Virus record (IMG/VR): IMGVR_UViG_3300017989_000062
Location: 85,483 to 149,482 of that record
Reading direction: 5' to 3' (one strand)
DNA from: a virus
Lineage: Duplodnaviria > Heunggongvirae > Uroviricota > Caudoviricetes
DNA: 64,000 nt
In this document: positions 4,258-61,526 of the stretch, one piece after another
Layout: each line of letters begins with the position of its first letter
Position numbering within the stretch: the first letter of the stretch is position 1
Made by a program: the position numbers and the translations under genes
Notes under the pieces: generated by a model
What the model saw: the letters and a program-made list of their open reading frames with translations, nothing else
Told to the model about the DNA's origin: nothing
Databases searched by the model: none

Positions 4258-5575
4258 AGCATACGGAGACTATATCAATTCTTTCAGGTCGTTTCCATTA
4301 GATCTGGATGGGTTAAAACCAGTTGAACGTAGGGTATTACTGTCTGCTTATCTGGTCGCAAGAGAGAAGTTTGCAAAATGTCCAAGGGTGGATGGAACTT
4401 GTATCGCCAGGTTCCATCCACACAGCACGACATATGGAACTATTGTCCAGTTGGCAAACCAAGGATTCTTAGAAAAACAAGGAAACTTTGGAAGTAATAT
4501 TGGAATAGAACCATCTCCACCTGCGGCTATGAGATACACAGAATGTAAACTTAATCCAAGAACATATGAACTGATGTTTAAGTATGTCAAGCATGTTCCT
4601 TGGGTTGATAGTGAATCCAAAGATGATAAAGAACCTCTTTATCTCCCTACTATGTTTCCAGTATGTCTTATTGGTCATGATTTTTCACAGGGAATTGGAT
4701 TTGGATTTCGGACGGTAATTCCTACATATTTCATTGCTGATTTACAGAAGCGACTTTTGTGGCTCCTCGGAATCAGAAAAACAAAACCTACTATTACGCC
4801 AAGATCCAATTGTCAAATAACTGCAGATCAAGCAGCATTGGAGTCGTTATTAACCACTGGAAAAGCTTCAATATCCATGAAAGGAGTTATCAAGGCAAAC
4901 GCAGCTTTATGCAAGGTTATTGTAAAATCTTGGCCGCCCGGTCGTAGATTTGAGGCAATTCTAAACAAACCAACCATCAAAAAATTGCTAGACAATCAAG
5001 ATATTGGTTTTATTGATTCTTCTGGTAAAAATGTTGGGACGGAAATTGTTTTCAGTGTTTTAAAACAAAGAAATCGAGATAAGATATACCGATCTTGTCT
5101 CAAAGCTATTCAAGCTGCTACAAGCAGTTCTGTAACATTTGAAATAACAATGACTGACATTAACAATCAGACAAGGGTTGTCTCTGTTGATGAAATGTTA
5201 ATGAATACGTTTAAAATGTATACAGAAGTCAATAAGACCATGTTAAACCATGAAATTGGAAAGACACAGAGTGCTATTGTAGAGTTAAACGCGTTAGCAG
5301 CAATTCGAGATCCATTAGCATTGATGATGCAGGCAACAGCCACATTTGGAAGTTATTCTTTAGAAAAGAAGGTCAAATTAATTTCAGATCAATCTAAAGT
5401 TGCTCAAGATGTGGTTAAGGAAATTCTTTCCAAGTATCCCATTCAAAAGTTATTGACTCTCGATACGGATACCACCAAGCTCCAAGAAAAGGTAACAGAA
5501 ATACAAGAAAGTTTAACAAATATTACTAATTTCGTCTTGGATCAATATAGTAAGGCGGGAAAGGAATTGTTATGA
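4229..5575 (+). CDS. DNA topoisomerase II A subunit-like (GyrA/T4 gp52-like)
   Basis: 'LKPVERRVLL' and the catalytic-Tyr motif 'AAMRYTE' (4524-4544). Start at MDQLIPKLY after an AAGGAG RBS; the ORF-track start at 3998 is probably an upstream extension. Confidence 0.8.
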   Translation: MDQLIPKLYKAYGDYINSFRSFPLDLDGLKPVERRVLLSAYLVAREKFAKCPRVDGTCIARFHPHSTTYGTIVQLANQGFLEKQGNFGSNIGIEPSPPAAMRYTECKLNPRTYELMFKYVKHVPWVDSESKDDKEPLYLPTMFPVCLIGHDFSQGIGFGFRTVIPTYFIADLQKRLLWLLGIRKTKPTITPRSNCQITADQAALESLLTTGKASISMKGVIKANAALCKVIVKSWPPGRRFEAILNKPTIKKLLDNQDIGFIDSSGKNVGTEIVFSVLKQRNRDKIYRSCLKAIQAATSSSVTFEITMTDINNQTRVVSVDEMLMNTFKMYTEVNKTMLNHEIGKTQSAIVELNALAAIRDPLALMMQATATFGSYSLEKKVKLISDQSKVAQDVVKEILSKYPIQKLLTLDTDTTKLQEKVTEIQESLTNITNFVLDQYSKAGKELL

Positions 5576-6066
5576 ACGGGAAGAAGGGATTTACGTTATT
5601 CGAATTATTGATGGCAATTGTGATCATTGGTGCTTTGTTAAGTTTTGTGTTAGGAACGATAAAGGACAACAAAGAAGAACTCAAAGAAGGTGTTGCTAAC
5701 ATTAAAGAAATCCTCAATGTTACATCTGAGGATGGTCATGTTTCCATTAAGATCACAACTAAACTAAATGAGAAAAGACCTGAATCGAAAACAGTGTCTG
5801 GTGGAGCAATTATAGAATGTGAACATGGTGACGGTTATGGAGACGGGAGGTCGGTTGTTTTCATTAATAAAGAGAAGTTTTATTTCGGTGAGAAAGATAG
5901 CTACGGAGATATCAAATCTTTTCCATGTTATCAACTCAAAGGTGTATTAGCAACTCAATGCCAGGATGGAGAGAGTGTTCTCTATGTTGGTAATAGAAAG
6001 TTTTATCTTGGCCACGATGATGGCTGGGGTGATTTGAACCCAATTCCATGTGATGGAGGAAAATAG
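5572..6066 (+). CDS. Type IV pilin/pseudopilin-like protein (prepilin N-terminal methylation motif)
   Basis: 'KKG|FTLFELLMAIVIIGALLSFV' matches the class III signal (G|FTLxE, with Glu at +5). The C-terminal half has two internal repeats, 'FYFGEKDSYGDIKSFPC' and 'FYLGHDDGWGDLNPIPC', each ending in Cys. Confidence 0.55.
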   Translation: MNGKKGFTLFELLMAIVIIGALLSFVLGTIKDNKEELKEGVANIKEILNVTSEDGHVSIKITTKLNEKRPESKTVSGGAIIECEHGDGYGDGRSVVFINKEKFYFGEKDSYGDIKSFPCYQLKGVLATQCQDGESVLYVGNRKFYLGHDDGWGDLNPIPCDGGK

Positions 6067-7933: not shown

Positions 7934-8368
7934 ATGAAGTACAAAGCAAGCGAGGTGACAAATAGTTCTTCAACCTCATTTATGGTGTACATTCCACCAA
8001 ACCTTGATATTAGGAAATTTCTTCATTTAATTCCAGAACAGATACATAAGGATTATGAAGACCAATCTAAACATTATGATGGTGCTATCGATCCACTTTC
8101 AAAATTGGTTGTTGAAAGGTTCGAAATGGCTCAAGAATATGTTTCATCATCAGTTTATGATGAATCTATGTATCAAAGTGATAGAGCTTTGATGTCCATT
8201 TTACAAGAGTTAGATCTGATTATTGATGAATGGGATTCTTGTCTCGGAGGAGGACAGTTGATTAATATTGGACATTCAACTATTCAAGACGGTGTTAAAA
8301 ATATTAAAGAAGGGAATTGGGGTATTCGACATGGTGGTTGGGGATCGAAAGACGGAGACACAATATGA
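7934..8368 (+). CDS. Small acidic protein carrying the conserved N-terminal tag MKYKASEVTNSSSTSF (tag family member A)
   Basis: The N-terminal 16 aa are shared with four other ORFs in this window; the rest of the protein is unrelated to them. Confidence 0.6.
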   Translation: MKYKASEVTNSSSTSFMVYIPPNLDIRKFLHLIPEQIHKDYEDQSKHYDGAIDPLSKLVVERFEMAQEYVSSSVYDESMYQSDRALMSILQELDLIIDEWDSCLGGGQLINIGHSTIQDGVKNIKEGNWGIRHGGWGSKDGDTI

Positions 8369-9417
8369 AATTTATTAGTATAGCAGATTTACATCTCTCA
8401 ATGTATTCTCAAGATCCAATTTTACAGGGGGTGCCTGAGAGATTGTATTTTCTAGACTTAGTCCTGAGAAATATTGCAGAATATGCGATTGCTCAGAAAA
8501 TTCCAAAAATTGTTATTGCTGGAGACACGTTTCATACAAAAAGTGTGATACATGCTCTTGCACAATCTATGTTATTAGATTATGTAAGAGATTATCGTGA
8601 TAAAGTTGAATTTATTTCAATTGATGGAAATCATGATATGTCTTCAAAGTCTGGTGAAGGTGTGTCAGCTCTAAAATGTTTGGACGTAGAACCAAATGTG
8701 GATATGATTCACACACCAAAACAAATCGAAAATGTACTCTTTGTTCCGTGGCATGCAAAGACGATGGTAAAAACAATAAAAGAGAATGCTGCTGACGTGT
8801 TAGTGTCTCATTTCGGTTTAAACGAGGCACAATTAAACAGTGGTATATCTATTATATCAGACATCGGGATCGGCGACCTGCGGAGCTATAAGCGGTGCAT
8901 AATCGGACATTACCATGCTCCCCAAGAGCTAGGAAATGTTATTATACCTGGTTCAATCATACAATTGGATTGGGGTGAGAAACATGAGGAAAAACGATTT
9001 ATTGTAATGGATACGGAGACGGATAAAGTTCAATCTATTCCAACTTCGGGATATAAGAAACATTACGTTATCGAGATTACCTCAGAAAACAAAGATGAAC
9101 AAGTTATTGAAGCTTTGAAACTAAAGGAAGAAGGACATGCAGTAAACATTCATAGAGTATCAAACGATGTGGATGTTGAAGATTTGCGAGAAAATTTTAG
9201 AGTTGTTGACAAGGTAGAAAAGGATATAACAAATAGAGGAATAGACTCGAGCATGTCAACTGCTGATAAATTACGCCGCTATATGGAAATACAAGAAATT
9301 CCAGAAGAGGATAGAGAAGAATACCTCAAATGCGGCTTAGATATTATCAGCACAGTGACGGGAGGAGAAACAGAATGTACATCTTACTCATCATCTTGTG
9401 GCTTGGTATCGGTATAA
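8365..9417 (+). CDS. Mre11/SbcD-like nuclease (T4 gp47-like; calcineurin-like phosphoesterase)
   Basis: 'IADLHL' (DxH), 'IAGDTFH' (GD) and 'IDGNHD' (GNHD/E) phosphoesterase motifs. Start at MKFISIADLHL. Confidence 0.75.
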   Translation: MKFISIADLHLSMYSQDPILQGVPERLYFLDLVLRNIAEYAIAQKIPKIVIAGDTFHTKSVIHALAQSMLLDYVRDYRDKVEFISIDGNHDMSSKSGEGVSALKCLDVEPNVDMIHTPKQIENVLFVPWHAKTMVKTIKENAADVLVSHFGLNEAQLNSGISIISDIGIGDLRSYKRCIIGHYHAPQELGNVIIPGSIIQLDWGEKHEEKRFIVMDTETDKVQSIPTSGYKKHYVIEITSENKDEQVIEALKLKEEGHAVNIHRVSNDVDVEDLRENFRVVDKVEKDITNRGIDSSMSTADKLRRYMEIQEIPEEDREEYLKCGLDIISTVTGGETECTSYSSSCGLVSV

Positions 9418-12184: not shown

Positions 12185-13231
12185 ATGGATAAAATTCAGA
12201 TTGTTAGTTGGTTGCTCACCAGGCGTTGTAATTTGAGATGTTCTTACTGTGCCCTCGTTCGAAATTACAAACATATGCCAGAAAAGTATCCTCAAATGAA
12301 ACACTATCATCAACATGAGATGTCAACAGAATATGTGATTGAGGTTCTTGGTAAATTGAAGGAGCATAATCCGAATGTTTTCAATATCTTATATGGCGGC
12401 GAACCGCTTCTAAGAAAAGATTTGGCTAAGATTGTGAATTTCTGTAATGATAATGACATTCATTATACAATCATCTCAAATAATACTGAAGAGATTCAGC
12501 CATTGCTTGATGCGTTAATGGATGATGTGGAATACATTAATGGCTATACAGCATCAGTGGACCCAGTTATTGTAATGGATCCGGCAAACGTTGATCCTTA
12601 TCGTTTGGACAAAAGTCTTGCTGGTTATGCAAAACTGGTAGCTTTAAAGAAACTATTTGGATCGGATTATGTAAAAGACCCAGTAGCGGAAATCACTGTT
12701 GACAATGAGTCAGTTCCTTATCTCCACAAACTAGTCTCTTTGCTGACTGAAAATGAGATTAGTAGCGACATCACATTTGTGGATATTGCAAAGAGTCCTT
12801 ACTATGACTTCTCAAATGTTAGTGATGAGAGTCAGTTGGTTCATAGATCTGATGAACTGAGCATTCAATTTGATAAAATCATCGATGACAAATTGGATGT
12901 TCATATGGCGGACAAACTCTTGCCGGCAATGTGGAAAATTCTTCCAGCAGATATGGATTGTGAAATTGAACGTAATGTTCATAATATGACCATTGATGCT
13001 GATGGTACTGTGAGGTTGTGTTTGAGGATTCGAGGAACAGCAACTCCGACGTTAAAAGCAATCGACGCATTTACCCCAACTGGATTAAATCCTATTCTTA
13101 AGGAGCATCTCAAACGGGATAAGGAACGTTATTGTCGAGGATGCAACTGGACCTGTATGTTAATGTCCCAAATACTCATGAAACAAAGTCATTTGTATCG
13201 TGAATTAGTGCACACCGAGAGGAGAAAATGA
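12185..13231 (+). CDS. Radical SAM enzyme with a C-terminal Cys cluster (SPASM/twitch-like); anSME/peptide-maturase-like
   Basis: 'CNLRCSYC' (Cx3Cx2C, 12228-12251), 'GGEPLL', and C-terminal 'YCRGCNWTC'. At 348 aa it is longer than QueE. Confidence 0.7.
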   Translation: MDKIQIVSWLLTRRCNLRCSYCALVRNYKHMPEKYPQMKHYHQHEMSTEYVIEVLGKLKEHNPNVFNILYGGEPLLRKDLAKIVNFCNDNDIHYTIISNNTEEIQPLLDALMDDVEYINGYTASVDPVIVMDPANVDPYRLDKSLAGYAKLVALKKLFGSDYVKDPVAEITVDNESVPYLHKLVSLLTENEISSDITFVDIAKSPYYDFSNVSDESQLVHRSDELSIQFDKIIDDKLDVHMADKLLPAMWKILPADMDCEIERNVHNMTIDADGTVRLCLRIRGTATPTLKAIDAFTPTGLNPILKEHLKRDKERYCRGCNWTCMLMSQILMKQSHLYRELVHTERRK

Positions 13232-13782
13232 AATATAAAGTGAGTGAAGTCACGAATTCTTCATCAACTTCATTCTTGATGGCATTTGCAGGAAACCACA
13301 TTGGTCTGTATAAAGCAATGCTCAAATATGAAGACCATTTTAGTTTAGAAAATGACTACTGGGAGGGCGGAAAATCCACTATTGATGTATGGGATGTTAT
13401 TCAAGCGTTAGATGGAGCAATTAAATCTAATCCAGAGCAGTTATGGTTAAGACCAGAAATCAAAACGATAGATGAAGCCATCAAAGGTTTGGAGGAAGAT
13501 GCAGCATCGTGGAAAAACCAAATCCGAGAATCAGCAGAAGAAGACAAATCTGGAGATGTCACATTTGATTGGGAAAAGGAAGCTCTCCGAAAGGCAATAA
13601 GTACTCTTCACCTTTTACAAAAGGGAAAGGAGCGAGGACTCACTTCGGTTATAAAAGTTGGATTTGGTGATAATCATGGTGAAATTTCCGGAGATATTGT
13701 TGGTTGTACAATGGATTATCGTGGCCGTCATATTCGGATAGATGAATCTGATTTTATCGTAGTAACGGAGCAAAATCGATGA
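13228..13782 (+). CDS. Tag-family member B (MKYKVSEVTNSSSTSF...), acidic
   Basis: Conserved N-terminal 16-mer. Immediately downstream of the radical SAM gene with a 4-nt overlap. Confidence 0.6.
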   Translation: MKYKVSEVTNSSSTSFLMAFAGNHIGLYKAMLKYEDHFSLENDYWEGGKSTIDVWDVIQALDGAIKSNPEQLWLRPEIKTIDEAIKGLEEDAASWKNQIRESAEEDKSGDVTFDWEKEALRKAISTLHLLQKGKERGLTSVIKVGFGDNHGEISGDIVGCTMDYRGRHIRIDESDFIVVTEQNR

Positions 13783-14387
13783 AATACAAGTCGAGTGAGG
13801 TGACGAATTCATCCAGTACCAGTTTTGTAATATCAGCATATGCATCTGGGTTTGTTATGGGTATTCCCCATGATGATTTATTTATGTGGGTGGAAAAATT
13901 TTGGCCTACTGCTATCCCAAAATCATTTCTATCAATTGGTACAGAAGAGATAACAGTAGAGTTGTTGATTGAAAATTTCGATGAGGACTGGCCGGATAAC
14001 GATGGTGTTGTTTTAGTGAACTTAACCAAGGCTACAAGGAGGGTTGGTTCGACACTTTCTAAAATTGAACCGGTAACTCAAGTTATAATGCAAGCTACTG
14101 GTCCTGTTACAATAAGGGCTAAACAAAAGATTACATTTAACAAACTCCGTAATTTATATACACAAGTTTGTGAACATTGTCTGGTTGGTGATGGAGAGGG
14201 AGAATTATACTATTCTCAACAACCAGTAGATTTTTCTGGTGATGGTTGGGATGGTGGTGACCCAATGGGCGATTACGCTTATACTGACGATTGTAAAGTT
14301 GCAGAATCAATACTCACTAAGATTATATGTGTAAAACGTGACGGAGTTATAAAAATGGGGGAGGAACGGAAAGATGGCAACACCTGA
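13779..14387 (+). CDS. Tag-family member C (MKYKSSEVTNSSSTSF...), acidic
   Basis: Conserved N-terminal 16-mer. In tandem with member B with a 4-nt overlap. Confidence 0.6.
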   Translation: MKYKSSEVTNSSSTSFVISAYASGFVMGIPHDDLFMWVEKFWPTAIPKSFLSIGTEEITVELLIENFDEDWPDNDGVVLVNLTKATRRVGSTLSKIEPVTQVIMQATGPVTIRAKQKITFNKLRNLYTQVCEHCLVGDGEGELYYSQQPVDFSGDGWDGGDPMGDYAYTDDCKVAESILTKIICVKRDGVIKMGEERKDGNT

Positions 14388-14709
14388 TGATGTAATAACG
14401 AGCGCAACTGCGTTCTTTTCAAAGGTAAAGGAGGAAGATCGTGTCACCATAAAGTTTGTGAAGAAAGATGGAACAGAGAGGACAATGAAATGTACTCTTA
14501 ATTTTAATCATGTTCCATTGTCTAAACGACCGAAAGATGTAAACGTGGCAAAGATTCTTACACGATTGAACAAACATGGGATTATTAACGTATATGATCT
14601 CGAGAAGCAAGATTGGCGTAGTGTGCCGTTTAAACAAGTTCAATGGTTAGAGACAGGTGAAGAAAATCAAGTTGATCGAAAGAGGTTTAGAATACAACCA
14701 CCGAGGTGA
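14374..14709 (+). CDS. Hypothetical protein
   Basis: ORF in the operon; no recognisable motif. Confidence 0.4.
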   Translation: MATPDDVITSATAFFSKVKEEDRVTIKFVKKDGTERTMKCTLNFNHVPLSKRPKDVNVAKILTRLNKHGIINVYDLEKQDWRSVPFKQVQWLETGEENQVDRKRFRIQPPR

Positions 14710-15287
14710 AAATGAAATTCGTAACAGCAGATTACCATTTAGGACATCATGGTATTATTGAAAGTTGCGATCGACCTTTTACACAAATTAGACATATGGA
14801 TAGCGCGATCATCAGAAATCATAACAAAGTAGTTGGTGATAATGATGATGTATACATTCTTGGGGATTTCTCCATGATGACAAAAAGACATCGCGGAACT
14901 ATTGAAGGATATGTCAGTAAGTTGAAAGGCCGAAAACATCTGATTATGGGAAACCATGATGTAAAAGACCCATGGTTTTGGATAGACATGGGATTCTGGT
15001 CAGTTCATGCACCATATTTTGAACTTGAAGATTTTATTCTCGTACATGATCCTGCTCTGTCTCAAGTCTGGACAAACAAGTGGTTTCTTTGTGGGCATAT
15101 ACATACTCTATTTTACATGCAGCGAAATTGTCTGAATGTTGGAGTGGACATGCATAATTTTACACCACTAACAATAGAACAAGTGAGGGATCAAATTCAA
15201 AGATATGAGGATGGAGAACGTTATACAGCAAGAAAGTGGTTGCAGAATATGAAAAGAGAACGAGAAAGGAGTATAATGCATGGTTAG
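14706..15287 (+). CDS. Calcineurin-like metallophosphoesterase / Ser-Thr phosphatase-like
   Basis: 'ADYHLGHH' (DxH), 'ILGDFS' (GD) and 'GNHD' motifs. Confidence 0.65.
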   Translation: MKMKFVTADYHLGHHGIIESCDRPFTQIRHMDSAIIRNHNKVVGDNDDVYILGDFSMMTKRHRGTIEGYVSKLKGRKHLIMGNHDVKDPWFWIDMGFWSVHAPYFELEDFILVHDPALSQVWTNKWFLCGHIHTLFYMQRNCLNVGVDMHNFTPLTIEQVRDQIQRYEDGERYTARKWLQNMKRERERSIMHG

Positions 15288-15669
15288 AAAAGACTTAGCC
15301 ATCGCATCCTTAGAAGTGGACCCAAAAGAAGGAAAATTATGGTTAAACACATCAAGGTGTATTTTACGTATCACTAATTTACAATTCACTGGTGAGATAA
15401 AAGAGCAGTTTGACATGCTTGAAATAAACGGTAGTGAAGGTTATATGGTTAGTGATGCAATGCCAGTAGATGAATCTGATGATCTCATGACATTCTTGAT
15501 GAATACAGCCAATTTTCTTCAATCAGAAATAAACCACAATAAACATATACTTGATAAGGGTGCGTTTTTAGACAGAATGCTTACTACCATGAGACAATTA
15601 GTTGATACAGATTATCGAGATGAAGGGAGCGATGATGGGAATATTAGAGCAACTGTTGTCAGAGATTGA
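15280..15669 (+). CDS. Hypothetical protein
   Basis: ORF only. Confidence 0.35.
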   Translation: MVRKDLAIASLEVDPKEGKLWLNTSRCILRITNLQFTGEIKEQFDMLEINGSEGYMVSDAMPVDESDDLMTFLMNTANFLQSEINHNKHILDKGAFLDRMLTTMRQLVDTDYRDEGSDDGNIRATVVRD

Positions 15670-15997
15670 AGATAAAGAACTTGATCAAAAAGTTAAGAAG
15701 CTTTGTGATCAAATAACAGACGAAGAAAGAGGCAAAGAAGAGTATACTGGTCCTGAAGGTCCGAATATTTTCCTATCACTTGAAGCCAGGACAACGGACA
15801 AAGAAGAGTTCTTTCTGACTCTTGAACGAGAGGAGGCTGAAAAATATATAGTGTGCTTTTACGCAAGATTTGTTGCAAGTCCTACAGGTCCGAGAAAACC
15901 CTTGAAAAGAATCAATTCATGGGAAGTCAAGGATGATAGAGCCAATAAGATTGTAAGGATGTTTGCGGAAAAGCTCAAATATGTTAGAGGTGAGTGA
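15632..15997 (+). CDS. Hypothetical acidic protein
   Basis: ORF; likely start at MMGILEQLL after a GAAGGGA RBS. Confidence 0.35.
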   Translation: MMGILEQLLSEIEDKELDQKVKKLCDQITDEERGKEEYTGPEGPNIFLSLEARTTDKEEFFLTLEREEAEKYIVCFYARFVASPTGPRKPLKRINSWEVKDDRANKIVRMFAEKLKYVRGE

Positions 15998-16017
15998 TTT
16001 CGAAAGGAGATCGAATT

Positions 16018-18531
16018 ATGATGGAAGAAATCGTGTTAAACGATTATTACGCGAGTCTTGTGATAAGCGCTGAACGAGAAGGGAATGATCCTACGTTTAC
16101 TCCATATCGGAGAAGACGAATAATAAAGATGGATGAGTTTAATCAAAGATTTGGAGAGGCAACAAATCAAGCAGGAATGATTTTGCCACAAAATACTCGA
16201 TATGTTGAACGTGTGGGTCGTCAAGGTTTACTCCTTGTTATTGAGGAATCTCCAAGAGTTCGGACCGTTAATGTTGAGATGGATATGGTTGGAACAATAG
16301 AGAAGCTCAAAATCACTGGACATTTGAAAGAGTATGGGTATGAAAACTGGTTAGAGGAGAATAAAAAAATACCATACAAATTTCGGCTTGCATTTCCTTA
16401 CATTGTATATGTGATGTTTATGGATGGAGGTTCATTAGTATCAGCTCATCCATATTACAGATTACACCCATTAACCTCTTTAGAAGATTATCTTCTTAAA
16501 CCAAATCTTCCAAATATCGGTAGTGGTGGGGCACTATGTCTTGGCTCGAATCCTCAAGATGGACATACAAAGAATCCATTTGAAGCGGCAAATGTTGCTC
16601 TTGAGAAATTCTGGGTAAATGCCTTTAATACAGATTATGCCTCAAGATATACTTCATATGATAAAATACCTTTTGTATCCGACTGGTTAACGTGGCAATA
16701 TCATACAATTCAGGATCCAATGTTTATCTATTCAGTGCCTTGGATTAAAGAACCAAAGATCTTGATAGATGCAATTAAGGATGTTATTGAAAGAGATCGA
16801 AGATATGGTACAGGTGTGGCATTAAGTTTTGACTCGTTGAGAAGCATTTTTACAAAACGAGTTCCTTCAAAAGATGACCCTATGTTTTATCATAATGTGA
16901 CTGAATCGGTTATCGTGGGTAGTGCGACGCTGGCGATTGGGGATGAAGTAGAATACCAAAAGAAACCTTACTATGTTCACTCGTTTTCTGGTAAACGACT
17001 TTGCCGTCCTGTTTCTGTCAATCTTGAAGATGATGAGGGTAATATCAAAGAAGTAAATCTTACTGCATCAACAGAAAAACAATTTGAGAAACAACTTCTT
17101 GGAGAGAAGCGACTGAAATATGTAACAGTTCAAGACCAAGAAGTGTCAGTTGGAGATATTCTGGTATTAAGTTATCCAGAAAATGCGTATCGTAAAGTAT
17201 CAAAAATACGACAAGGTAGAGATGGTAAAATTGAGGTACAATGTAATCAAACTGATTACTATCTTCTTGAGAACTTAAAATTTTCTCGATTTACTGATAA
17301 CCTAATTAACATAGATGGAGTTGAGGTTGGGAAGGATGAAGAGGTTTATCTCCTTGATATACATAACAGTTCCTCGAATCCTCTATGCGTTGGATCAAAA
17401 GTTGTTTTCTGTGGATTTTCGGATACAAGGGATGGAGTTCTTATTGGTGAGTTTAAAGATGTTGATACTGACCAGCCAGAAATCCATAGTGTTCGACTTC
17501 AGAATAGCTCAAAACGTTTGGTGAAGATGGAGGATATGTATATTCCACCAGTATATCGAATATTCTGTAATTTACATACCAATACTCCACGAGATACCCC
17601 TCAGTATCCTTTGATGAGAAAATATGGGTCTTTGACTCCACGTAGAGGCACAGAGGGTAACAGATACCATCAGGCATATGCCACAAAGAAAATCTTATCT
17701 GAAGATAAATCAGAACTTCATATTCCCGGGTTTGATATTGATATCAACTTTAAAGTTGGGGATAGTGTTGTGATCTCAGATTGGGAACATCCTTTGGAGA
17801 TGTTAAAGGTTAGAACCATTCAATCTTTTACAATAGAAGGATCGGCGTTGTTTGTCAATACAATTACCGCGAAGGGAGTTGAACGAAAAGATCTGTATAT
17901 TAACCTTATAACTGGGTGTATTTGGACTGGCACAATTCGTCATATAATGCCAGAATTTGGTGGAATAAAGGCTGGAGATAAAATACGAGCAAATACTCCT
18001 GGTATTACAATGTTCCCGAAGAAAGACACAAACACAGTTATTGGTTTCTTATCGGATTGTGGTGAAGATCATTATCCACTGATGTTGTGTTCTAACTGTT
18101 GTACACAATGGGCAAGTCCTGCAGGTCTAAGTCGATTTGATGTTATCAGAAGAGGAACTCCTCAGTGGATGAAAGCTAAAAATGCCCCAATACAAATAAG
18201 TAAAATCAAATATCAATGTGGAGATATGGTTTGTAGTTTGAATGACTCACCGCAATTTTATGTAGGAGTATATCATAAATACGGTGGAGAAGTTAGAATG
18301 ACCGATCTCAGACAATGGGGTACAGGATATTATAACGATATTACTGAATACACTCGTGAACGTTGGAGAAGAGTAGGATTCATATCTCCTCGTTATCAAC
18401 AAAGAGTGTTGGGTGAGTTAAGACGCAGACAAAAAGCGGGGTTTTCAAATCTACATAACGGTTTTACTCCATATCCAACAACAGAAAATCGATACAGGGA
18501 GGACTGGGATTATGTTCAATGTCTGGATTAA
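16018..18531 (+). CDS. Large (about 837 aa) protein of unknown function heading the JAB/E1/E2 operon; contains a possible divergent UBC-like motif
   Basis: AAGGAG RBS before MMEEIVLN. 'VYVMFMDGGSLVSAHPYYRLHP...IGSGGALCLGS' (about 16440-16560) loosely resembles the E2 HPN...G.ICL core. Confidence 0.45.
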   Translation: MMEEIVLNDYYASLVISAEREGNDPTFTPYRRRRIIKMDEFNQRFGEATNQAGMILPQNTRYVERVGRQGLLLVIEESPRVRTVNVEMDMVGTIEKLKITGHLKEYGYENWLEENKKIPYKFRLAFPYIVYVMFMDGGSLVSAHPYYRLHPLTSLEDYLLKPNLPNIGSGGALCLGSNPQDGHTKNPFEAANVALEKFWVNAFNTDYASRYTSYDKIPFVSDWLTWQYHTIQDPMFIYSVPWIKEPKILIDAIKDVIERDRRYGTGVALSFDSLRSIFTKRVPSKDDPMFYHNVTESVIVGSATLAIGDEVEYQKKPYYVHSFSGKRLCRPVSVNLEDDEGNIKEVNLTASTEKQFEKQLLGEKRLKYVTVQDQEVSVGDILVLSYPENAYRKVSKIRQGRDGKIEVQCNQTDYYLLENLKFSRFTDNLINIDGVEVGKDEEVYLLDIHNSSSNPLCVGSKVVFCGFSDTRDGVLIGEFKDVDTDQPEIHSVRLQNSSKRLVKMEDMYIPPVYRIFCNLHTNTPRDTPQYPLMRKYGSLTPRRGTEGNRYHQAYATKKILSEDKSELHIPGFDIDINFKVGDSVVISDWEHPLEMLKVRTIQSFTIEGSALFVNTITAKGVERKDLYINLITGCIWTGTIRHIMPEFGGIKAGDKIRANTPGITMFPKKDTNTVIGFLSDCGEDHYPLMLCSNCCTQWASPAGLSRFDVIRRGTPQWMKAKNAPIQISKIKYQCGDMVCSLNDSPQFYVGVYHKYGGEVRMTDLRQWGTGYYNDITEYTRERWRRVGFISPRYQQRVLGELRRRQKAGFSNLHNGFTPYPTTENRYREDWDYVQCLD

Positions 18532-19675
18532 TGATGGGACTACAGAGATGCCTTCCGACGATATTCTATACATTGTCTCAAAAGAAGGCATCTTCTTAAA
18601 GAAAAAACTAGGGTTGTTTGAAAGCATGGCTCCTGTAGACGGTATCAGTATTCTGAATGAGCTTGAATCTTATGCACATATGGATATTTACCAGATTCCA
18701 GGAAAGATGTTCTCTCAAGTTTTGTATTTCTTCATTGCTGTTCTCAAAGAATACAAAGGAGAAGCAAATGTTATTATTCATTATAATCAAACCACTGGAA
18801 ACTATAAGTTTGAAATACCAGAGCAAAAGGTTGCTCCAGCGGGAACTGCATATGAAAGTGAGGTGAGTTATAAAAACTTTGTAAGATTAGGAACAATTCA
18901 TAGTCATTGTAATTTCTCAGCTTTTCATTCTCCAACTGATAAGGGTGATGAAGCAACATGGGATGGTTTACATATTACCATCGGAGATATTTTTAAACCA
19001 GCCTTCTCATGTACGGCATCTATTGTAGCAAATGGAACAAGGTTTGTGGTCAATCCAACAGACTATGTTGAAGGGTTGGAGCTTACAGAAGTTGAAACAA
19101 TAACTAATCCTCAGTACGCTGCATATCTGGAAAGGGAAGGAAAGGAAATTCCAGAAACTATGATTAAAAAGACGCTTGGATATAAAATCAATGTTGATGC
19201 AAAAGGATATCCAGCCAAATGGATGTCCAGCATATCCAAGAAGGAATACAAACCTGTTGTATATGGCTCAAATGGAGATCGAAGATATGGACATTGGGGA
19301 CAATGGCATCGAGATGTTCGACAACCAGGACTTTTTGATGGTACTGGAAACACAGTATTTCCAGATCAATCAATGTTGATTCCAGATCCAGGAAAGTCAT
19401 ATTCTGATCTTCTCTTTCGACAGTTTGGGGGAACGGAATGGAATCCCTGTGAGGAATGTCCTTATAAGAATCACAAGGTTGATTTACTTATGGAATCTAT
19501 TCTAGAAGAGCTTGATCTAGATGACGACCAACTTGAAAAACTTGGTTTTGAGGTTGATGATGAACAAACTGAACTGAATAGTGACGAACCTCATAACTAT
19601 ATTCCAGAGCATTATCAACAAGAAGGGTTTAGGACACCTGAAGAAGCCATTAACGGAGGTGTGCATGAGGATTAA
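18512..19675 (+). CDS. JAB/MPN+ (JAMM) metalloprotease, deubiquitinase-like
   Basis: Exact JAMM signature HxHx7Sx2D in 'HSHCNFSAFHSPTD' (about 18893-18934), with an upstream Glu. Confidence 0.65.
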   Translation: MFNVWINDGTTEMPSDDILYIVSKEGIFLKKKLGLFESMAPVDGISILNELESYAHMDIYQIPGKMFSQVLYFFIAVLKEYKGEANVIIHYNQTTGNYKFEIPEQKVAPAGTAYESEVSYKNFVRLGTIHSHCNFSAFHSPTDKGDEATWDGLHITIGDIFKPAFSCTASIVANGTRFVVNPTDYVEGLELTEVETITNPQYAAYLEREGKEIPETMIKKTLGYKINVDAKGYPAKWMSSISKKEYKPVVYGSNGDRRYGHWGQWHRDVRQPGLFDGTGNTVFPDQSMLIPDPGKSYSDLLFRQFGGTEWNPCEECPYKNHKVDLLMESILEELDLDDDQLEKLGFEVDDEQTELNSDEPHNYIPEHYQQEGFRTPEEAINGGVHED

Positions 19676-20450
19676 AATTATTGGTTTGGGTGGAGTTGGT
19701 ACATATCTCTGTGATGCATTATGTAGATACTTAAACTATGGAGAAGCTTCTGATATCATTGTTACGATGGTTGATGGAGATTCATACGAGCAAAAGAATC
19801 TACAACGGCAGGTATTCACCGATTTTGGAAATAAAGCTGAAACAAAGAAAGCAGATATGCAGGAGCTTTATGACCGACTGAAGTTTGAGAACATTAACTC
19901 TTTCGTAAATTCAGAAAACATTAGGAGGATAGTGTACAGTGGTGATATCGTGTTTGTGTGTGTTGATAACCATCAGACGAGAAAAGTTGTTTCTGATTAT
20001 GCAACAACCTTGGACGATATTACAATAATTTCGGGCGGTAATGAATTTACCGACGGTAATGTCCAAATTTATGTGAGGAAAGGAGGCATTGATATTACGC
20101 CATCACTTACGGACTACCACCCGGAAATTGAAACCCCAGGTGACCGGTCACCTGAGGATATGGGGTGTGAAGAATTGGCAAAGGCAGCACCACAGCTTTT
20201 GTTTACCAACCTAACAGTAGCTACGATTATGTGTTGGGTATTCTACGCACTTATTCTGCAAAAAGATCCAGTTGCATTTGCAGAGATTTATTTTGACCTT
20301 GAGACCATGAGCGTGAGATCTCAAATCAGAAAACCAGTAACGAAAGGAGTTCGATCGAATGACCAAAGTAACGTTGAACGAAAAGACAGTAGCGGAACTA
20401 CGCCAAATGTGTCGGGATCAGGATATTCCTGGTATGAGCAAGAAGCGTAA
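19665..20450 (+). CDS. ThiF/MoeB/E1-like adenylyltransferase (E1-like subunit a)
   Basis: Rossmann 'IIGLGGVGTYL' and 'DGDSYEQKNLQRQVF', which is ThiF-family Dx-D...NLxRQ. GGAGG RBS before MRIKIIGLGG. Confidence 0.65.
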   Translation: MRIKIIGLGGVGTYLCDALCRYLNYGEASDIIVTMVDGDSYEQKNLQRQVFTDFGNKAETKKADMQELYDRLKFENINSFVNSENIRRIVYSGDIVFVCVDNHQTRKVVSDYATTLDDITIISGGNEFTDGNVQIYVRKGGIDITPSLTDYHPEIETPGDRSPEDMGCEELAKAAPQLLFTNLTVATIMCWVFYALILQKDPVAFAEIYFDLETMSVRSQIRKPVTKGVRSNDQSNVERKDSSGTTPNVSGSGYSWYEQEA

Positions 20451-23297: not shown

Positions 23298-25997
23298 ATG
23301 CCATGCCTTCTGGACTATGCACAATTCTGTGAAGAATTACCCGAAGTTAGATCCTCAAAAATCATGGATAAGAAACATTTTCATCCAGAGGGTTTATTTT
23401 CGGAGCAAATCTTTGGTCCTCTTAAAAACTATACGTGTCAATGCGGAACCTACCATGGAGTGTCAAAGTCTGGAGGGACATGTGGTGAATGCGGTGTTGA
23501 CATTGTAAATAGTGATGAGAGACGTCGGAGATTTGCAAAAATTATACTGCCGATAGAGGTTATGAATCCAGTATTTTATGATTTGATTGCTGATGTGGGC
23601 GGTAAAGATATTAAAGGTGCGATTGATACACTTTTGAAAAAAGAAGATGCTGTTATGTATATGGATGAAGAAGAATTTGTTGTGACAACTCAAGAGCATC
23701 TTCCTGAGAATGTGACCAAATGGGAACGTCTGGAAGCAATTAATGAACTAGTTACTGGTCTTGCAGATAAGTTATGTGTGGAGATGGATGAATGGCAGTT
23801 AATTAAAAATAATATTGACAGGTTATTCTTAAGGTCAATTATCGTTCTACCTCCAGATCTTAGACCAGCGGCAAAAGGTGTTGAAAGAAATAGCCAGGTC
23901 GTGGATAAGATTAATCGTTTCTATAATCAAATCCTAAACAAAAAAGAAACTATGGAAGCAACGCTAGTTGACGTGTTGCGAGATAAGCAACTTTTCTATA
24001 GTTACTTTAAACAATTACAAAAAGACGTCAATGATCTATACAGTCACATAGTAGAAAAAATGTCTAAGAAGGAAGGTTTGATTCGAGGAAACATTCTTGG
24101 CAAACGAATTGATTTCTCTGGTCGAGCTGTTATTATTCCTGATCCAACGATTAACCTTGATGAGTGTGTTTTGCCGTATGCAATGGTTTTAGAATTATTT
24201 AAGTTGCAAATTGCAAAGAAGTTAATTGATATAGAGAAATTCAAAACCTTGAATCAAGGAATTGATTTTGTTGATGAATGTATTGAATATCAAATACCCG
24301 TCTTGTTCAAGATTTGCCAAGAGATGGTTAAAGGTGAAGTGTGTTTGCTTAACCGTCAACCATCACTACATAGACTCAGTATGCTAGGGTTTAAGGTCCA
24401 GGTATCTCTTGATAATGTTATTAAGATTCATCCTTTAGCCTGCCCTCCATTTAACGCAGACTTTGATGGAGATCAGATGGCAGTTTATATCCCTATATCC
24501 AAGAAAACAAAAGAAGAGGTTCTTGAGAAGTTTCTTATTACAAGAAATTTTACAAACCCAGCTAATGAAAGTCTCACAACCACACCCAGTCAAGATATCA
24601 TTTTGGGTATTTATACGCTTACAAATAATGAGTTTCCACAGTTGCAGAAAACAGTTGAATTGAAGGGTTCTATGATATCAGAAGGAAGAGCATTGTTCAA
24701 TAAATGTCTTCCAGAAGATTATCCAGTTGTTGACGAAGTGGTTCGAGCAAAAGATCTAATGAAAATATTGGATCGAATTAAGCGAGAATATAGTTACCAA
24801 ATACTGGCAGTAGTCCTAGATGAAATTAAACGTCTGGGTTTTAAATATAGTACATTATATGGTTCTTCTATGTCACTACAAGCATCTCGAGTAGAAGGAG
24901 CCAATGAATTACAAAAAAGTCTGTATGTAGATGATGATATTAGGGAACAGTTAAATAAAGTTTCTAGTAATGTAACACAAAAATTTCTGGAAGATCACTT
25001 TTCATATTCCTATATGATTGAGTCTGGAGCGAGAGGTTCATGGGATCAGGTTAGACAAATAGTACTAACTCGAGGATTTATCTCTAACTTCAAAGGTCAA
25101 ATTATTCCTCATCCAATTAAACACAGTTTTCTTAACGGGTTGACTCAGAAAGAGTTCTTTGATTCAACTTATGGAAGTCGAAAAGGGTTGCTGGACGTTG
25201 CTCTAAATACTGGCTCGTCAGGCTATCTTTCTAGAAAACTAATCTTTGCTTGCACCAATTTGATTCTGAACACAGATGTTGAAGATTGTGGTACAACAGA
25301 TTTCTTAGAAGTCTTTGTGGCAGATAAAAAGAAAGCAAGGATGTTGATTGGGAAATGGATGAAGACTGATAACGGGTTGGTTGCAATTACAGAAGAAAAC
25401 AATCAAAGTCTTGAAGGCACAACTATACAAGTAAGAAGTCCTATTTTCTGTAAGAATCCAGGTATCTGCTGTAAGTGTTATGGGGAGTTGTATAAAACCA
25501 TAGACAGTAGATTTGTAGGAGTTATTGCTGCTCAGTCAATGGGAGAAACAAATACTCAGTTAGTTTTAAGAACCTTCCATACAAGTGGGGTTGCTGTTAT
25601 TAAGGATCTCCAAGATGAAGATATGAAGCAAATGGATATTGTAAACGATTTGTCTATAGCTTCAAAGTTACTTCATCAGTTTAAAGGTGAAACACACACA
25701 TCCTTAGTTCATAAACTTTGTGAAGTGTATAATAACAGTCGATCAATACATCATGTTCATTTTGAATGTGTGGTAGCTCAGTTAATGTGGTTTGGTTATA
25801 CAAAATGGCGATTGTTACATAACAGAGATAAATACGCACCAGAATTTCACTCTGTGCAGACTGTTCCTTCATACGAGAGTTGGTTATTGGCTCTAGCATT
25901 CTCCAACCCGAAGCGAAGTATCCTAAAGGGTATTCTCTACAGTGGTCGGTATACTGGAGTTATGGATACAATTCTGAAGGGAGGTATGGTTGTATGA
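23298..25997 (+). CDS. Multisubunit RNA polymerase beta-prime-like subunit (unsplit)
   Basis: N-terminal zinc-binding 'CQCGTY...CGECGV'. The universal catalytic motif 'NADFDGDQMAV' at about 24441-24480. Confidence 0.85.
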   Translation: MPCLLDYAQFCEELPEVRSSKIMDKKHFHPEGLFSEQIFGPLKNYTCQCGTYHGVSKSGGTCGECGVDIVNSDERRRRFAKIILPIEVMNPVFYDLIADVGGKDIKGAIDTLLKKEDAVMYMDEEEFVVTTQEHLPENVTKWERLEAINELVTGLADKLCVEMDEWQLIKNNIDRLFLRSIIVLPPDLRPAAKGVERNSQVVDKINRFYNQILNKKETMEATLVDVLRDKQLFYSYFKQLQKDVNDLYSHIVEKMSKKEGLIRGNILGKRIDFSGRAVIIPDPTINLDECVLPYAMVLELFKLQIAKKLIDIEKFKTLNQGIDFVDECIEYQIPVLFKICQEMVKGEVCLLNRQPSLHRLSMLGFKVQVSLDNVIKIHPLACPPFNADFDGDQMAVYIPISKKTKEEVLEKFLITRNFTNPANESLTTTPSQDIILGIYTLTNNEFPQLQKTVELKGSMISEGRALFNKCLPEDYPVVDEVVRAKDLMKILDRIKREYSYQILAVVLDEIKRLGFKYSTLYGSSMSLQASRVEGANELQKSLYVDDDIREQLNKVSSNVTQKFLEDHFSYSYMIESGARGSWDQVRQIVLTRGFISNFKGQIIPHPIKHSFLNGLTQKEFFDSTYGSRKGLLDVALNTGSSGYLSRKLIFACTNLILNTDVEDCGTTDFLEVFVADKKKARMLIGKWMKTDNGLVAITEENNQSLEGTTIQVRSPIFCKNPGICCKCYGELYKTIDSRFVGVIAAQSMGETNTQLVLRTFHTSGVAVIKDLQDEDMKQMDIVNDLSIASKLLHQFKGETHTSLVHKLCEVYNNSRSIHHVHFECVVAQLMWFGYTKWRLLHNRDKYAPEFHSVQTVPSYESWLLALAFSNPKRSILKGILYSGRYTGVMDTILKGGMVV

Positions 25998-26238: not shown

Positions 26239-29200
26239 TTGAAATTTGTTAATCCGATGTTTAAACCTAAGGAAGATAACATCTTTCTTATACGACAACG
26301 GGAATTTGATGCATTAGAATCCACAATTCTTCAAATATTGCAACCAGTTGTTGATATTGGTTTTGAAATTGTGGATTTCGGCATTAAAGATCCAAAAATG
26401 GCATCAGGAGAATTACAACCAACCCTTAGAAAGAATTTAATTATCAAATTACAAAGAGGGACGTCAAACATTGATCTCTCTATGCAAATACCAGCTCTAA
26501 TTGATGACAACTATATTATCATCAATGGAAGAAAGAAAATCCCTCTGTTTCAATTATTTGATATTCCTGTTGTGACAAGGGGGAAAGCAATTAAAATTAG
26601 AACTAACGTCGCTACTATGATGTTGTTTGAGGAAAAGAATCCACCCTACGTCTATCTTAGTATATTGGGAAAAAGGGTTCCATTCTGTATGATTATGTTT
26701 GCGAAGTATGGTTATGAAGTATTAGATAGTCGATTTGATTTTGCGAATCTCGATCCATCGTTGGATACGATTTACGGAAAGCTTCTATATGATTTGAAAC
26801 TAATGTATGAAGCTGGAGAATCTACCCAAGTGGACATCTTTCGAGAAATTGGTAGAATCTACTCCAAGTATAACTTCTTGGCGAAGGGTGAAACATTACT
26901 CTATGCTCTCGACATCATGCTTGCAGTAGATCCATACTCTGCAAAATTCTTTAAGACAGATTCCGTTATTGAGGAATTTATCGACGTTATGCAGAATCCA
27001 GATTACGATGATACCGACTATCAAAATAAAAGAATCAGGTGTTTTGAGTATGCCGTAGCATCAAAGGTTTCCAAAGCTGTATTTGATTTATGTCTTGCTC
27101 ACAGAACCACAAGAAATGCCAAATTCAATGTCAACTCAACAAAAATACTGACTGAATGCAATGTGTCTGATATTGTTCAGTTCGATTTCTCTATTAATCC
27201 AATTGAAGAGTTAACCAAACTTTCAAGAACTAGTTTGGTAGGACCTGGTGGATTTAAACGAGAAAATGTTCCTGAGCATCTCAGAGATCTTAGCGACACA
27301 ATGTTTGGTCGAATGTGTCCTGTTGATACTCCTGATCGAGATAACTGCGGAGTATTGCAGAATCTTTTAGTTAACACAAAGTTTGACGAGAATCTCAGAT
27401 TTACAAATGAAACTCTTGTGGATGCACCAATCTCTATCCCAGTATCAATGGTTCCATTTCTCGAACATGATGATCAGACCAGACTGCAAATGGCTTCTTC
27501 ACAGATGAGACAAGCTGTATTGTTAAAGAAGTTTGATACACCAATGGTCCAATCTGGGTGTGAAGGATTATATACAGATCATACTCAGTTTGTAAAACTT
27601 GCTAAGAAAAATGGAGAAGTTGTTTATATCAATGACAAACATATGATCGTTGTTTATGATGACAAATCTATTGACATCTTCAACGTTGGATATCGAAAAA
27701 TCTATGTTGAAAACATGGATTTAATTAATGTATATGTCAAACAGGGAGATAAGTTCAAAGCAGGTGATATACTTGCTGAAAGCAACTATTGTACCGATGG
27801 TAGTATAAACATTGGTAAAAATTTACTTACGGGAGTTATGATCTATTATGGTCATAATTATGAGGATGGTATTGTTATCTCAGACAGGTTGGTAAATGAT
27901 GGGTCTTTTACATCAGTACATTATAGAGACTTCTCATTCACATTACCACCAGATAAGGTTCTTCTGAGTCTTGAAGAAGATTCATATAAACCTCTACCTG
28001 ATGTATTTGACAAGGTTACGATTGGTTCTACGTACGCTATTATGAAGAAGGTTCCACAGGGTCCAACAGACTTCTGTTCAATCTTTGAAGAGCCGATTGA
28101 ACTTACAACAAAAAAGTCCGTAGTAATTACTGAAGTTAACATTTACCCCAATACATGGAATGAAGGTATTCCAGAGTTTAAAGATTGGGTTGAAGCAAAA
28201 ATTGAAACTCAATTACAAAAAGAGAAAGAAATACAAGACATATTAAAGTCTCACTTACCAAAAGAAGTTGTGTCAAGATATATTAGAGACAATGGATTCG
28301 ATAAGAGTAGTTTTGTTAGAAAATACAAGGTGAAGAAAGAAAAGGTTAATGGTATACAAGTTGAGATGTATGGTATATACACTCGCAAAATACAAGTTGG
28401 AGATAAGATCGGAAATCGGCATGGTAACAAAGGTGTTATTTCAACTATAGTTCCTCATGAAATGATGCCCCAACTAGCTGATGGACGACATGTAGATATT
28501 TGCATTAACCCACTCGGAATTATCAGTCGAATGAACATTGGTCAATTATTTGAATTACATTTGAGCATGGCTTTAGATGATCTCAAGAAGAATCTTTTGA
28601 AAATGATAGAGAATAAACAAGGTCAAGCACAACTTAAATTATATTTAACTGGTTTTTACAAGGCAATTGATAATACAAAAACTGGTTGGTATACAAAACA
28701 ATATATGGAGCAAATACCCGAAGTCATTGATAAAGACTTTGTTGAGCATCTTACAGTAATACAACCGCCATTTGAATCTGTTACTGCAACCATGCTTGAA
28801 GAAGTTCTAAAGTATACAGAAACATCATTTGAACAGAAACTCTTAGATCCAGTTTCTGGACAACATTTGTTAAATACTGTCGCAGTTGGGTTCATGTACT
28901 TCTTTAGAATGGTTCATATTGCTGAGTCAAGATTAGCAGCGAGAGGGATTGGATCATATGCAAGAAGAACATTACAACCGTTAGCCGGGAGAAAAAATAA
29001 AGGTGGACAAAGACTTGGTGAAATGGAAACAGCATGTCTAATTGCTCACGATGCACCATACAATATAGCTGAATTCTTAACTACAAAATCAGACTGTATT
29101 GATATGAAAAATAGATTTCTTAGAAATACAATTGAAACTGACTTACTAAAAGATGAAAGCAATGGGGATTCAATAGTGGCTGAATCAGTTAAGTTACTTG

Positions 29201-41234: not shown

Positions 41235-41236
41235 AA

Positions 41237-58661: not shown

Positions 58662-58670
58662 ATCAATCCT

Positions 58671-59360: not shown

Positions 59361-59370
59361 GACGCGCTGC

Positions 59371-59943: not shown

Positions 59944-59951
59944 TTTAAATC

Positions 59952-60563: not shown

Positions 60564-60573
60564 AAGGTTACTC

Positions 60574-61080: not shown

Positions 61081-61090
61081 ATTTAAACTC

Positions 61091-61516: not shown

Positions 61517-61526
61517 ATATTACCTC

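Follow-up and report, generated by a model that had tools for sequence, protein, structure and literature searches.

In bacteriophage T4, an almost invariant N-terminal peptide of about 10 aa, the capsid-targeting sequence (CTS), is carried by IPI, IPII, IPIII, and Alt, which are otherwise unrelated, evolve rapidly, and are encoded at several loci. The T4 peptide ends in an L/I-x-E prohead-protease site (S/A/G-x-E in the phiKZ-like phages) and occurs in virions only. The present study concerns a 16-residue N-terminal peptide, here called the tag, that begins five proteins encoded in a 64,000-nt stretch of DNA (the window) that is part of a large tailed phage (Caudoviricetes; IMG/VR record IMGVR_UViG_3300017989_000062, positions 85,483 to 149,482). 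Like the CTS, the tag is a near-invariant N-terminal peptide on unrelated, fast-evolving small phage proteins encoded at several loci; unlike the CTS, its Glu is clade-specific, bacteria also have it, and it shows linkage to an enzyme gene. The last feature is shared with systems for peptides that are made by ribosomes and then modified post-translationally (RiPPs) in which one maturase serves many precursors (prochlorosins/ProcM; MftC, PqqE, SkfB, and WgkB): here, too, a SPASM/twitch enzyme, the radical S-adenosylmethionine (SAM) protein that we call rSAM-A, is encoded beside genes that share an N-terminal segment and differ downstream, and further copies are dispersed in the genome. We find that the tag is a portable N-terminal module under peptide-level selection on unrelated protein bodies and that it is genomically coupled to rSAM-A in three independent contexts, and we consider it likely that the tag is the docking site, and probably the modification site, of this one enzyme with many protein-sized substrates.

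A further point of comparison is the KpAvs2 operon, which encodes Avs2, a signal transduction ATPase with numerous domains (STAND NTPase), together with the radical SAM protein Avap1 and the small protein Avap2, assigned to DUF6375 by HHpred (Bechon et al. 2024, PMC11564622). Avap2, which is essential, binds Avs2 directly; Avap1 is required only against a subset of phages; and the functions of both accessory proteins are stated to be unknown (PMC11564622). What would be new in the system described here is that the known logic of a SPASM maturase and a leader-bearing substrate is applied to proteins, in large phages, and is common to bacterial NLR-like operons.

Five Unrelated Proteins Share an N-Terminal Tag

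The pattern MK[YF]K[ASV]SE[VI]TNSSS[TS][ST]F forms the N terminus of five open reading frames (ORFs), all on the + strand. ORF 1 (7934-8368; 144 aa, pI 4.8; tag at 7934-7981, MKYKASEVTNSSSTSF) has a helicase gene on one side and an Mre11-like gene on the other, ORF 2 (13228-13782; 184 aa, pI 5.0; tag at 13228-13275, MKYKVSEVTNSSSTSF) precedes ORF 3 (13779-14387; 202 aa, pI 4.7; tag at 13779-13826, MKYKSSEVTNSSSTSF), and ORF 4 (38405-38809; 134 aa, pI 4.4; tag at 38405-38452, MKYKASEVTNSSSSSF) is followed by ORF 5 (40857-41234; 125 aa, pI 4.2; tag at 40857-40904, MKFKASEITNSSSTTF), which lies between an HD-domain gene and an SPFH gene. An initial annotation of the window had described five unrelated acidic proteins with a common 16-aa N terminus, and this description is borne out: a six-frame regular-expression search revealed no further copy in the window, a degenerate pattern written for the tag's DNA matched those five sites and no others, with 0.00 expected (100 shuffles), and the pI values span 4.2-5.0. 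The five-fold occurrence is real and far beyond chance.

All 11 invariant columns in the protein alignment of the five fall in residues 1-16, and similarity ends at about residue 18. Nucleotide identity is 70% in the tag vs. 30% in the next 16 codons, over which amino-acid identity is 5.6%. Among 160 pairwise comparisons of tag codons the residue is the same in 137, and 75 of these 137 (55%) use a different codon, AGY/TCN serine switches included, which agrees with the earlier view that selection acts on the peptide and that no recent DNA duplication is involved. The short hydrophobic stretch reported after the tag is also present, as residues 16-18, the beginning of strand beta-1 in an AlphaFold2 (AF2) model of the ORF 3 protein. 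The start codons of the five ORFs are sound, because a GGAG/GAGG-like Shine–Dalgarno sequence lies 6-10 nt upstream of each ATG and the motif occupies residues 1-16 in every one of more than 300 homologues; the concern that the starts are wrong and the peptide untranslated is thereby removed. Scans of the five proteins against Pfam and PHROGs gave nothing significant, Megablast and tblastn searches of INPHARED found no match to the window among deposited phages, and a word-index protein search with the first 45 residues returned nothing, the query probably being too short for the method.

For comparison of the bodies, the first 18 residues were removed from 338 tagged proteins. The trimmed bodies fall into 42 BLAST clusters, and hhalign profile–profile comparison links only four pairs of these ({3,14}, {7,9}, {4,8}, and {13,15}); at least 10 groups are unlinked by profile comparison, and the five window bodies represent five unlinked groups by both methods. 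To this extent the bodies are indeed unrelated, and a single conserved domain reaching well beyond 16 aa was not found at the sensitivity of BLAST and hhalign. The ORF 1 body has an hhalign link (96%) to cluster 3, whose members stand in the rSAM-A arrays of other phages, the ORF 2 body belongs to cluster 9, present in rSAM-A arrays elsewhere, and the ORF 4 body belongs to cluster 1 (32 members), found directly behind rSAM-A in other phages. The ORF 5 body belongs to cluster 4, and that of ORF 3 falls in the largest family of bodies, in which a second motif, GDGWDGGDPMGxY, is also invariant. Mean column identity in the best body family is 20%, against about 100% for the tag. The tag also stands on bacterial proteins of about 135 aa, with different C-terminal motifs, and on membrane proteins 480-507 aa long.

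In the AF2 model of the ORF 3 protein, residues 1-9 are unstructured and residues 11-20 (mean predicted local distance difference test score, pLDDT, 89) lead into the fold. A fold search with this model gave weak AdoMetDC-like or TBP-like similarity in the PDB and nothing in BFVD. Self-processing of the AdoMetDC pyruvoyl type was considered and rejected; enzymes of that type combine clear membership of the fold with an internal Glu-Ser or Ser-Ser site of processing, a combination not seen here.

The Tag Defines a Widespread Family

A DNA pattern of the strict window type matched only contigs L001/L003 and L002 in IMG/VR and the JGI metagenomes. The first impression given by this pattern, that of a near-unique tag, was misleading: relatives use R4 or D6-F7. 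Further loci were gathered via neighboring conserved genes, and each 21-kb piece across the lineage contains one to three ORFs that start M[KR]x[KR]xDF[VI]TNSSS..[FY]. In the closest relative, whose core genes are about 80% identical, four of the five tagged genes have orthologs, and these keep the tag intact as MKF[RK]xSEVTNSSSTSF. The ORF 1 ortholog (L004, 5527-5961) has a body 47% identical and the tag MKFRASEVTNSSSTSF; that of ORF 2, also in L004, a body 52% identical with the tag kept; that of ORF 4, in L024, a body 39% identical and the tag MKFKMTEVTNSSSTSF; and orthologs of ORF 5 occur in L002 (79%), in L024 (48%), and, as a remote one, in L017. Retention of the tag on bodies that are only 39-52% identical, vs. 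about 80% for neighboring core genes, argues for selection at the level of the peptide. The tagged L017 ORF homologous to the ORF 5 protein (8734-9084, + strand; IIKTKSDFITNSSS...) has an apparent ATA start, which could be a non-canonical start, a sequencing error, or the sign of a pseudogene.

When 1.84 billion representatives were searched with a profile seeded from the ORF 3 family, 120 proteins were returned, 119 of them with the motif, always at residues 9-13. A more general DNA pattern matched at least 120 IMG/VR stretches, often with two to five tandem genes, and supplied 220 unique complete tagged proteins (median 128 aa, range 59-234) with the same logo. N10, S11, and S12 are invariant in the 119 and in the 220 independent proteins, always as residues 10-12. 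The family consensus, M-K-I-K-x-D-F-[VI]-T-N-S-S-S-[TS]-x-[FY]-[IV]-[ILV], is strictly N-terminal, and the sole peculiarity of the window's clade is Ser6-Glu7 in place of Asp6-Phe7. Glu7 occurs in 2 of the 119 and 6 of the 220 proteins, in that clade only; a cleavage site at Glu7 was rejected on these grounds. Arg replaces K2 in 7% and K4 in 16% of the family, and protein P0064 (MRIRSDF...) has no Lys in its tag.

The tag proves to be widespread, on many hundreds of phage and bacterial proteins. The initial annotation underestimated its scale: the tag is not peculiar to this phage. A single 39-nt degenerate pattern is a practical search key that retrieves the family with essentially no chance matches. 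The literature searched, including that on phage rSAM/RiPP systems, contains no description of the tag or of phage gene arrays like those described below.

Two metagenomic proteins, P0097 (211 aa) and P0112 (189 aa), are head-to-tail fusions of two complete tagged units, the second unit having its own M-K-x-K-x-D-F-V-T-N-S-S in mid-protein. These are probably tandem genes that lost the intervening stop codon or, alternatively, cases of gene-calling read-through.

Genomic Coupling of the Tag to rSAM-A

In 120 IMG/VR loci fetched by the tag, among the matches listed, the commonest co-occurring gene encodes rSAM-A, first met in contig L001. The enzyme gene is present in 46 of these 120 loci, in every case upstream and on the same strand; as a rule the distance from the rSAM-A stop codon to the start of the closest tagged gene is zero or within tens of nucleotides, and arrays of up to five tagged genes follow. 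A reciprocal test used 80 IMG/VR loci fetched by rSAM-A homology alone and hence free of tag bias. A tagged gene starts within 1 kb downstream of rSAM-A in 61 of the 80 (within 100 nt in 32), lies within 5 kb upstream in 2, and is on the opposite strand in none. The arrays in these loci comprise one to six tagged genes, and the first gene after rSAM-A is drawn from at least nine body clusters, including those of the ORF 4, ORF 2, and ORF 1 proteins. When close relatives of the L001 enzyme were sought in IMG/VR, only L001 itself was returned.

The genome to which the window belongs has this cassette as well. The last 123 nt of the window (63878-64000) are the start of contig L001 (100% identity, blastn), and a 156-kb ENA contig (L289; ERZ27256770, k141_823530), whose first 18,187 nt match window positions 52588-64000 at 99.99%, contains L001 at 100%. 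In window-equivalent coordinates, rSAM-A (396 aa; L001:1670-2857) lies at 65,547-66,737 on the + strand, about 1.5 kb past the 3′ end of the window, and a sixth tagged gene at 66,694-67,056 (+ strand; 120 aa, MKYKITEVTNSSSANF) overlaps its 3′ end. Next come genes for a 366-aa protein and the tail sheath; the cassette sits within the tail/baseplate region, with sheath and baseplate genes on either side, and the layout beside baseplate genes recurs in 17 loci.

Proteins of the rSAM-A family are about 330-350 aa long and have the CxxxCxxC motif and four further invariant C-terminal cysteines of the auxiliary-cluster type. All 31 members examined match Radical_SAM and 20 of the 31 match SPASM. The nearest solved relatives are the peptide maturase SkfB, which is the nearest, and BtrN, and the best NCBIfam neighbors are MftC, PqqE, WgkB, and NirJ2. 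The nearest sequence relatives are RiPP maturases, but all matches to the curated maturase families are far below cut-offs, and rSAM-A is, judged from its sequence, an undescribed SPASM/twitch subfamily. Given the invariant radical-SAM and auxiliary-cluster cysteines, it is probably catalytic.

Four contigs from metagenome-assembled genomes (MAGs) with Thermoplasmatales or Promethearchaeota labels (L232, L252, L270, and L276) have rSAM-A followed by three to five tandem tagged genes and also carry the Rad50/Mre11-like genes that characterize the present phage lineage. They represent either archaeal viruses or phage sequence placed in archaeal MAGs by a binning error.

Tagged Proteins in Bacterial STAND Operons

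The general pattern also matched 60 stretches in bacterial and archaeal genomes, including complete chromosomes and Tissierella praeacuta DSM 18095. In 36-47 of these loci the tagged gene is part of an operon with the order STAND NTPase, a paralog of about 130 aa with a degenerate tag, the tagged protein of about 135 aa, and a radical-SAM enzyme. The STAND NTPase matches PADLOC Avs2 (E 2e-24) and NCBIfam Avs2 (E 3e-15, far below cut-off), and its N terminus sometimes has an SMEK or restriction-endonuclease (REase) domain. The operon enzyme is 32-36% identical to the phage rSAM-A over its full length (E about 1e-50). The operon is annotated on plasmid pAt of A. tumefaciens Ach5 (WP_038496262, WP_038496259, WP_051489734, and WP_038496256), where the small protein starts MKLKMDFVSNSSSTSF. 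Clustered at 90% identity, the bacterial small-protein family has 745 groups, none of them named or with a Pfam domain (precomputed Pfam, 120 listed homologues). A third context is a Firmicutes MAG, in which the gene for a tagged membrane protein of 507 aa begins before that of an rSAM-A homolog (hhalign E 2.8e-70) has ended. Across the three architectures the enzymes have diverged to about one-third identity while the tag is nearly letter-perfect.

The gene directly upstream of the tagged gene in the bacterial operons is its paralog (BLASTP E 5e-6), as at L235:2043-2450, L285:5188-5616, and L287:4228-4593, and the N terminus of this paralog is a decayed tag, for example MEMRYDFDSYNSLLLV in L272. 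The arrangement suggests a tagged/untagged heterodimer. In L259 (4275-5366, − strand), the rSAM-A homologue upstream of the membrane protein has C-x8-C-x6-C (GHCAHGKSGLCSKSGVQCYQ) in place of CxxxCxxC.

These operons resemble KpAvs2 in combining an Avs2-like STAND protein with small accessory proteins, in their frequent location near restriction-modification genes, and in their taxa, which include Nitrospirae and Desulfobacterota. The radical SAM protein of the bacterial operons and of the phage is a possible counterpart of Avap1. It could not be established by hmmscan or from precomputed Pfam that the tagged protein is an Avap2/DUF6375 homologue: hmmscan found no match to DUF6375 in the tagged or untagged small proteins at E values up to 1. 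The phage cassette differs from KpAvs2 in that the window and the phage loci examined contain no STAND gene and in having many tagged clients rather than one.

A Probable Docking and Modification Site

The most economical reading of the tag is that it is a docking and modification site for rSAM-A, because rSAM-A is the only partner conserved in all contexts and belongs to a class that modifies peptides and proteins. From the linkage, which is observed directly, we infer a physical interaction, a modification, its site, and its purpose. Residues 1-8, basic and flexible and tolerating either K or R, would form a docking strand on rSAM-A, and the invariant Asn10-Ser11-Ser12(-Ser13), with the aromatic residue 16, would be presented to the radical-SAM active site for post-translational modification, possibly a dehydrogenation or a cross-link. 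Residues from 15 onward would be the first beta-strand of the following domain, with hydrophobic residues 16-18 as the junction to the client fold. The enzyme would serve the genes arrayed behind it and the dispersed copies, including the five in the window, following a one-maturase, many-precursors RiPP logic on folded proteins of 100-200 aa. An accessible docking peptide fits the AF2 model, because residues 1-9 are unstructured there. The earlier reading as a shared recognition tag holds, and of the roles first listed for it only recognition by a radical-SAM enzyme has gained real support.

The tag system departs from RiPP pathways in that its clients are not peptides but folded proteins, mostly 100-230 aa long and in the extreme 507 aa, one tagged family being modeled confidently as folded, and in that the conserved part is only 16-18 residues, at the very N terminus, with an invariant polar triplet. 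Because it is short, N-terminal, and contains this triplet, the tag is probably the modification site itself and not a removable leader. A further parallel is with anSME/AtsB, which convert Ser or Cys to formylglycine in sulfatases, and QhpD, which forms cross-links in the QHNDH gamma subunit: in each case a SPASM-type enzyme addresses a short motif in a protein. Membership of the anSME or QhpD families is not supported by score; the tag has neither a C/S-x-P-x-R motif nor a conserved Cys, and no sulfatase or dehydrogenase context was seen.

Several points weigh against a role in docking to and modification by rSAM-A. The Ser run could be structural rather than exposed, as residues 11-20 are confidently modeled into the fold. 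No PqqD-like RiPP recognition element (RRE) was matched in Pfam or NCBIfam, with only some 45-60 conserved residues preceding CxxxCxxC in the enzyme, and the phage loci have no conserved third cassette gene, be it a protease, an exporter, or an RRE. A tagged gene is lacking within 1 kb in about 20% of the rSAM-A loci, and three of the window's five tagged genes are not adjacent to any rSAM gene. Many of the phage loci are related and so not fully independent, a concern that is lessened by the bacterial and Firmicutes contexts. Finally, if KpAvs2 is homologous, its small protein would have an enzyme-independent function, since Avap1 is dispensable against some phages (PMC11564622).

If the tag is a client site of rSAM-A, it would constitute a protein-level counterpart of RiPP biosynthesis inside large phages, in which one radical-SAM enzyme matures diversifying small acidic proteins, the kind of gene usual in host takeover and counter-defence. 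The 16-mer also offers a testable handle, through N10, S11, S12, and the aromatic residue 16, on the question of Avap1 and Avap2 (PMC11564622), and A. tumefaciens Ach5 pAt and T. praeacuta DSM 18095 are cultured sources of the pair. A putative role in counter-defence against STAND sensors that share the module is an attractive idea. In a more specific version, which we regard as speculative and rather unlikely, the phage would use its own enzyme to mature an expanding, fast-evolving set of tagged effectors, at least six in the genome, which would decoy or inhibit the STAND sensors of the host that depend on this pair, and rSAM modification on Asn-Ser-Ser would define a new class of matured proteins shared by large phages and Avs2-type operons, a conjunction to which we give the same small weight. 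Were the decoy version true, it would supply the first function for Avap1-type radical-SAM accessory proteins.

Alternative Explanations

The linkage of tag and rSAM-A would fit equally if the tag were an unmodified docking or assembly peptide, added as a beta-strand to a conserved partner, with the bodies as cargo or specificity domains. That partner could be rSAM-A itself as a scaffold or adaptor, a STAND NTPase, or another tagged protein. The bacterial tagged protein and its degenerate-tag paralog suggest a heterodimer. The direct binding of the KpAvs2 small accessory protein to its STAND protein (PMC11564622) and the fixed position of the tag relative to Met1 in more than 300 proteins point the same way. 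Nevertheless, an invariant polar Asn-Ser-Ser in phages and bacteria alike would sooner be expected of a chemical site than of a strand used in binding, the invariance of the radical-SAM and four auxiliary-cluster cysteines speaks for a catalytic enzyme, and the examined regions of the phage genomes with tagged arrays contain no STAND partner. We regard unmodified docking as having a small chance of being correct, the best of any alternative to modification by rSAM-A.

It is less probable that all the tagged proteins are extreme paralogs going back to a single ancient domain, the N-terminal hairpin of which serves as a core for structure or ligand binding, with a metabolic link to rSAM-A such as binding of the enzyme's small-molecule product. 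Residues 10-26 are within the fold in one good model, that of the ORF 3 protein, four pairs of body clusters do link at the profile level, the tandem arrays and fused tandem units suggest birth by duplication, and the second Gly/Asp-rich invariant motif of the largest family could form a binding site together with the tag. Yet the five window bodies and most clusters lack profile similarity to one another, the tag is found both on a 507-aa membrane protein and on helical bacterial proteins of about 135 aa with different C-terminal motifs, the disparity in column identity between tag and body is as great as described above even in the best family, and there would be no need for a ligand site to lie at a set distance from Met1.

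A signal for capsid targeting or packaging, comparable to the T4 CTS, with the tagged proteins as internal proteins injected with the DNA, was among the roles first proposed for the tag and now appears very unlikely. In anatomy the tagged proteins resemble the internal proteins of T4, being small, mostly acidic, and quick to evolve behind an N-terminal peptide that does not vary; the rSAM-A cassette is located in the tail/baseplate gene region; and the x-S-E of the window variant at residues 5-7 resembles a prohead-protease site. This Glu is, however, absent from the general consensus, which also weakens the proposed protease-site role, and no prohead protease was found in the window. Moreover, the STAND operons of bacteria, both chromosomal and on A. 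tumefaciens pAt, have a near-identical tag where there is no virion, and capsid targeting leaves the rSAM linkage unexplained; the two functions, capsid targeting and modification by rSAM-A, are not mutually exclusive.

The weakest proposal, which we consider to have almost no chance of being right, is that the tag is an acceptor, through Lys2/Lys4, for a ThiF/PRTRC-like (E1/E2-like) module, or a signal of the protease or degron kind: the window encodes ThiF (19665-20450) and a protein weakly like PRTRC-A (18512-19675), and K2 and K4 are invariant among its five tagged proteins, but the Lys acceptor was rejected in view of the free replacement of both residues by Arg across the family, at both positions in P0064, the closest relative of the window has MKFRASEV, the bacterial tagged operons lack ThiF, and the ThiF block is retained in related phages with no tagged gene beside it.

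The Adjacent Enzyme rSAM-B

A second radical SAM/SPASM protein, type B (rSAM-B; 12185-13231, + strand, 348 aa), is encoded immediately upstream of ORF 2, its stop codon overlapping the ORF 2 start as ATGA. It matches Pfam Radical_SAM (E 4e-12) and, weakly over its full length, the NCBIfam models for the PapB and QhpD maturases; BLAST found no similarity between rSAM-B and rSAM-A. Twenty related phage loci retain the rSAM-B gene, in many cases with a tagged gene no more than 1.5 kb away. In most of the distant relatives, rSAM-B is followed directly by WYL_2 and not by a tagged gene, which, like the lack of relationship to rSAM-A, weakens the case for rSAM-B as a universal partner, although a tagged gene often lies within 1.5 kb upstream. 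The initial annotation had listed the tag as a possible leader for this adjacent enzyme; recognition by a radical-SAM protein has gained support, but the linked enzyme is rSAM-A and not rSAM-B.

Genome Context of the Window

The window encodes gyrase-like subunits, QueD, a helicase, Mre11/Rad50-like proteins, a radical-SAM/SPASM enzyme, WYL_2, a split RNA polymerase beta/beta′, an HD protein, an SPFH protein, a terminase, a tape measure protein, and baseplate proteins. The polymerase is represented by two large ORFs (23298-25997 and 26257-29280, + strand) that match phage multisubunit RNA polymerase beta/beta′ PHROGs and mark the phage as carrying its own RNA polymerase. A conserved block on the + strand (12185-20450) runs from rSAM-B through WYL_2 (14374), small proteins, an 837-aa protein (16018), and a 387-aa protein with the weak PRTRC-A match (18512) to ThiF (19665), and keeps its gene order in about 20 related phage loci; a ubiquitin-like protein was not identified. 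At 40370-42559 (+ strand), the order of the HD-domain protein, tagged ORF 5, and the SPFH/Band-7 protein is kept in L002 and L024. Finally, a 164-aa protein encoded at 5572-6066 (+ strand) has a prepilin-type N-terminal cleavage/methylation motif (MNGKKGFTLFELLMAIVIIG; TIGR02532, E 1.3e-6), and a homologue with an N_methyl match occupies the same relative position in the related phage locus L027; the product is a pilin-like protein kept in a phage lineage.

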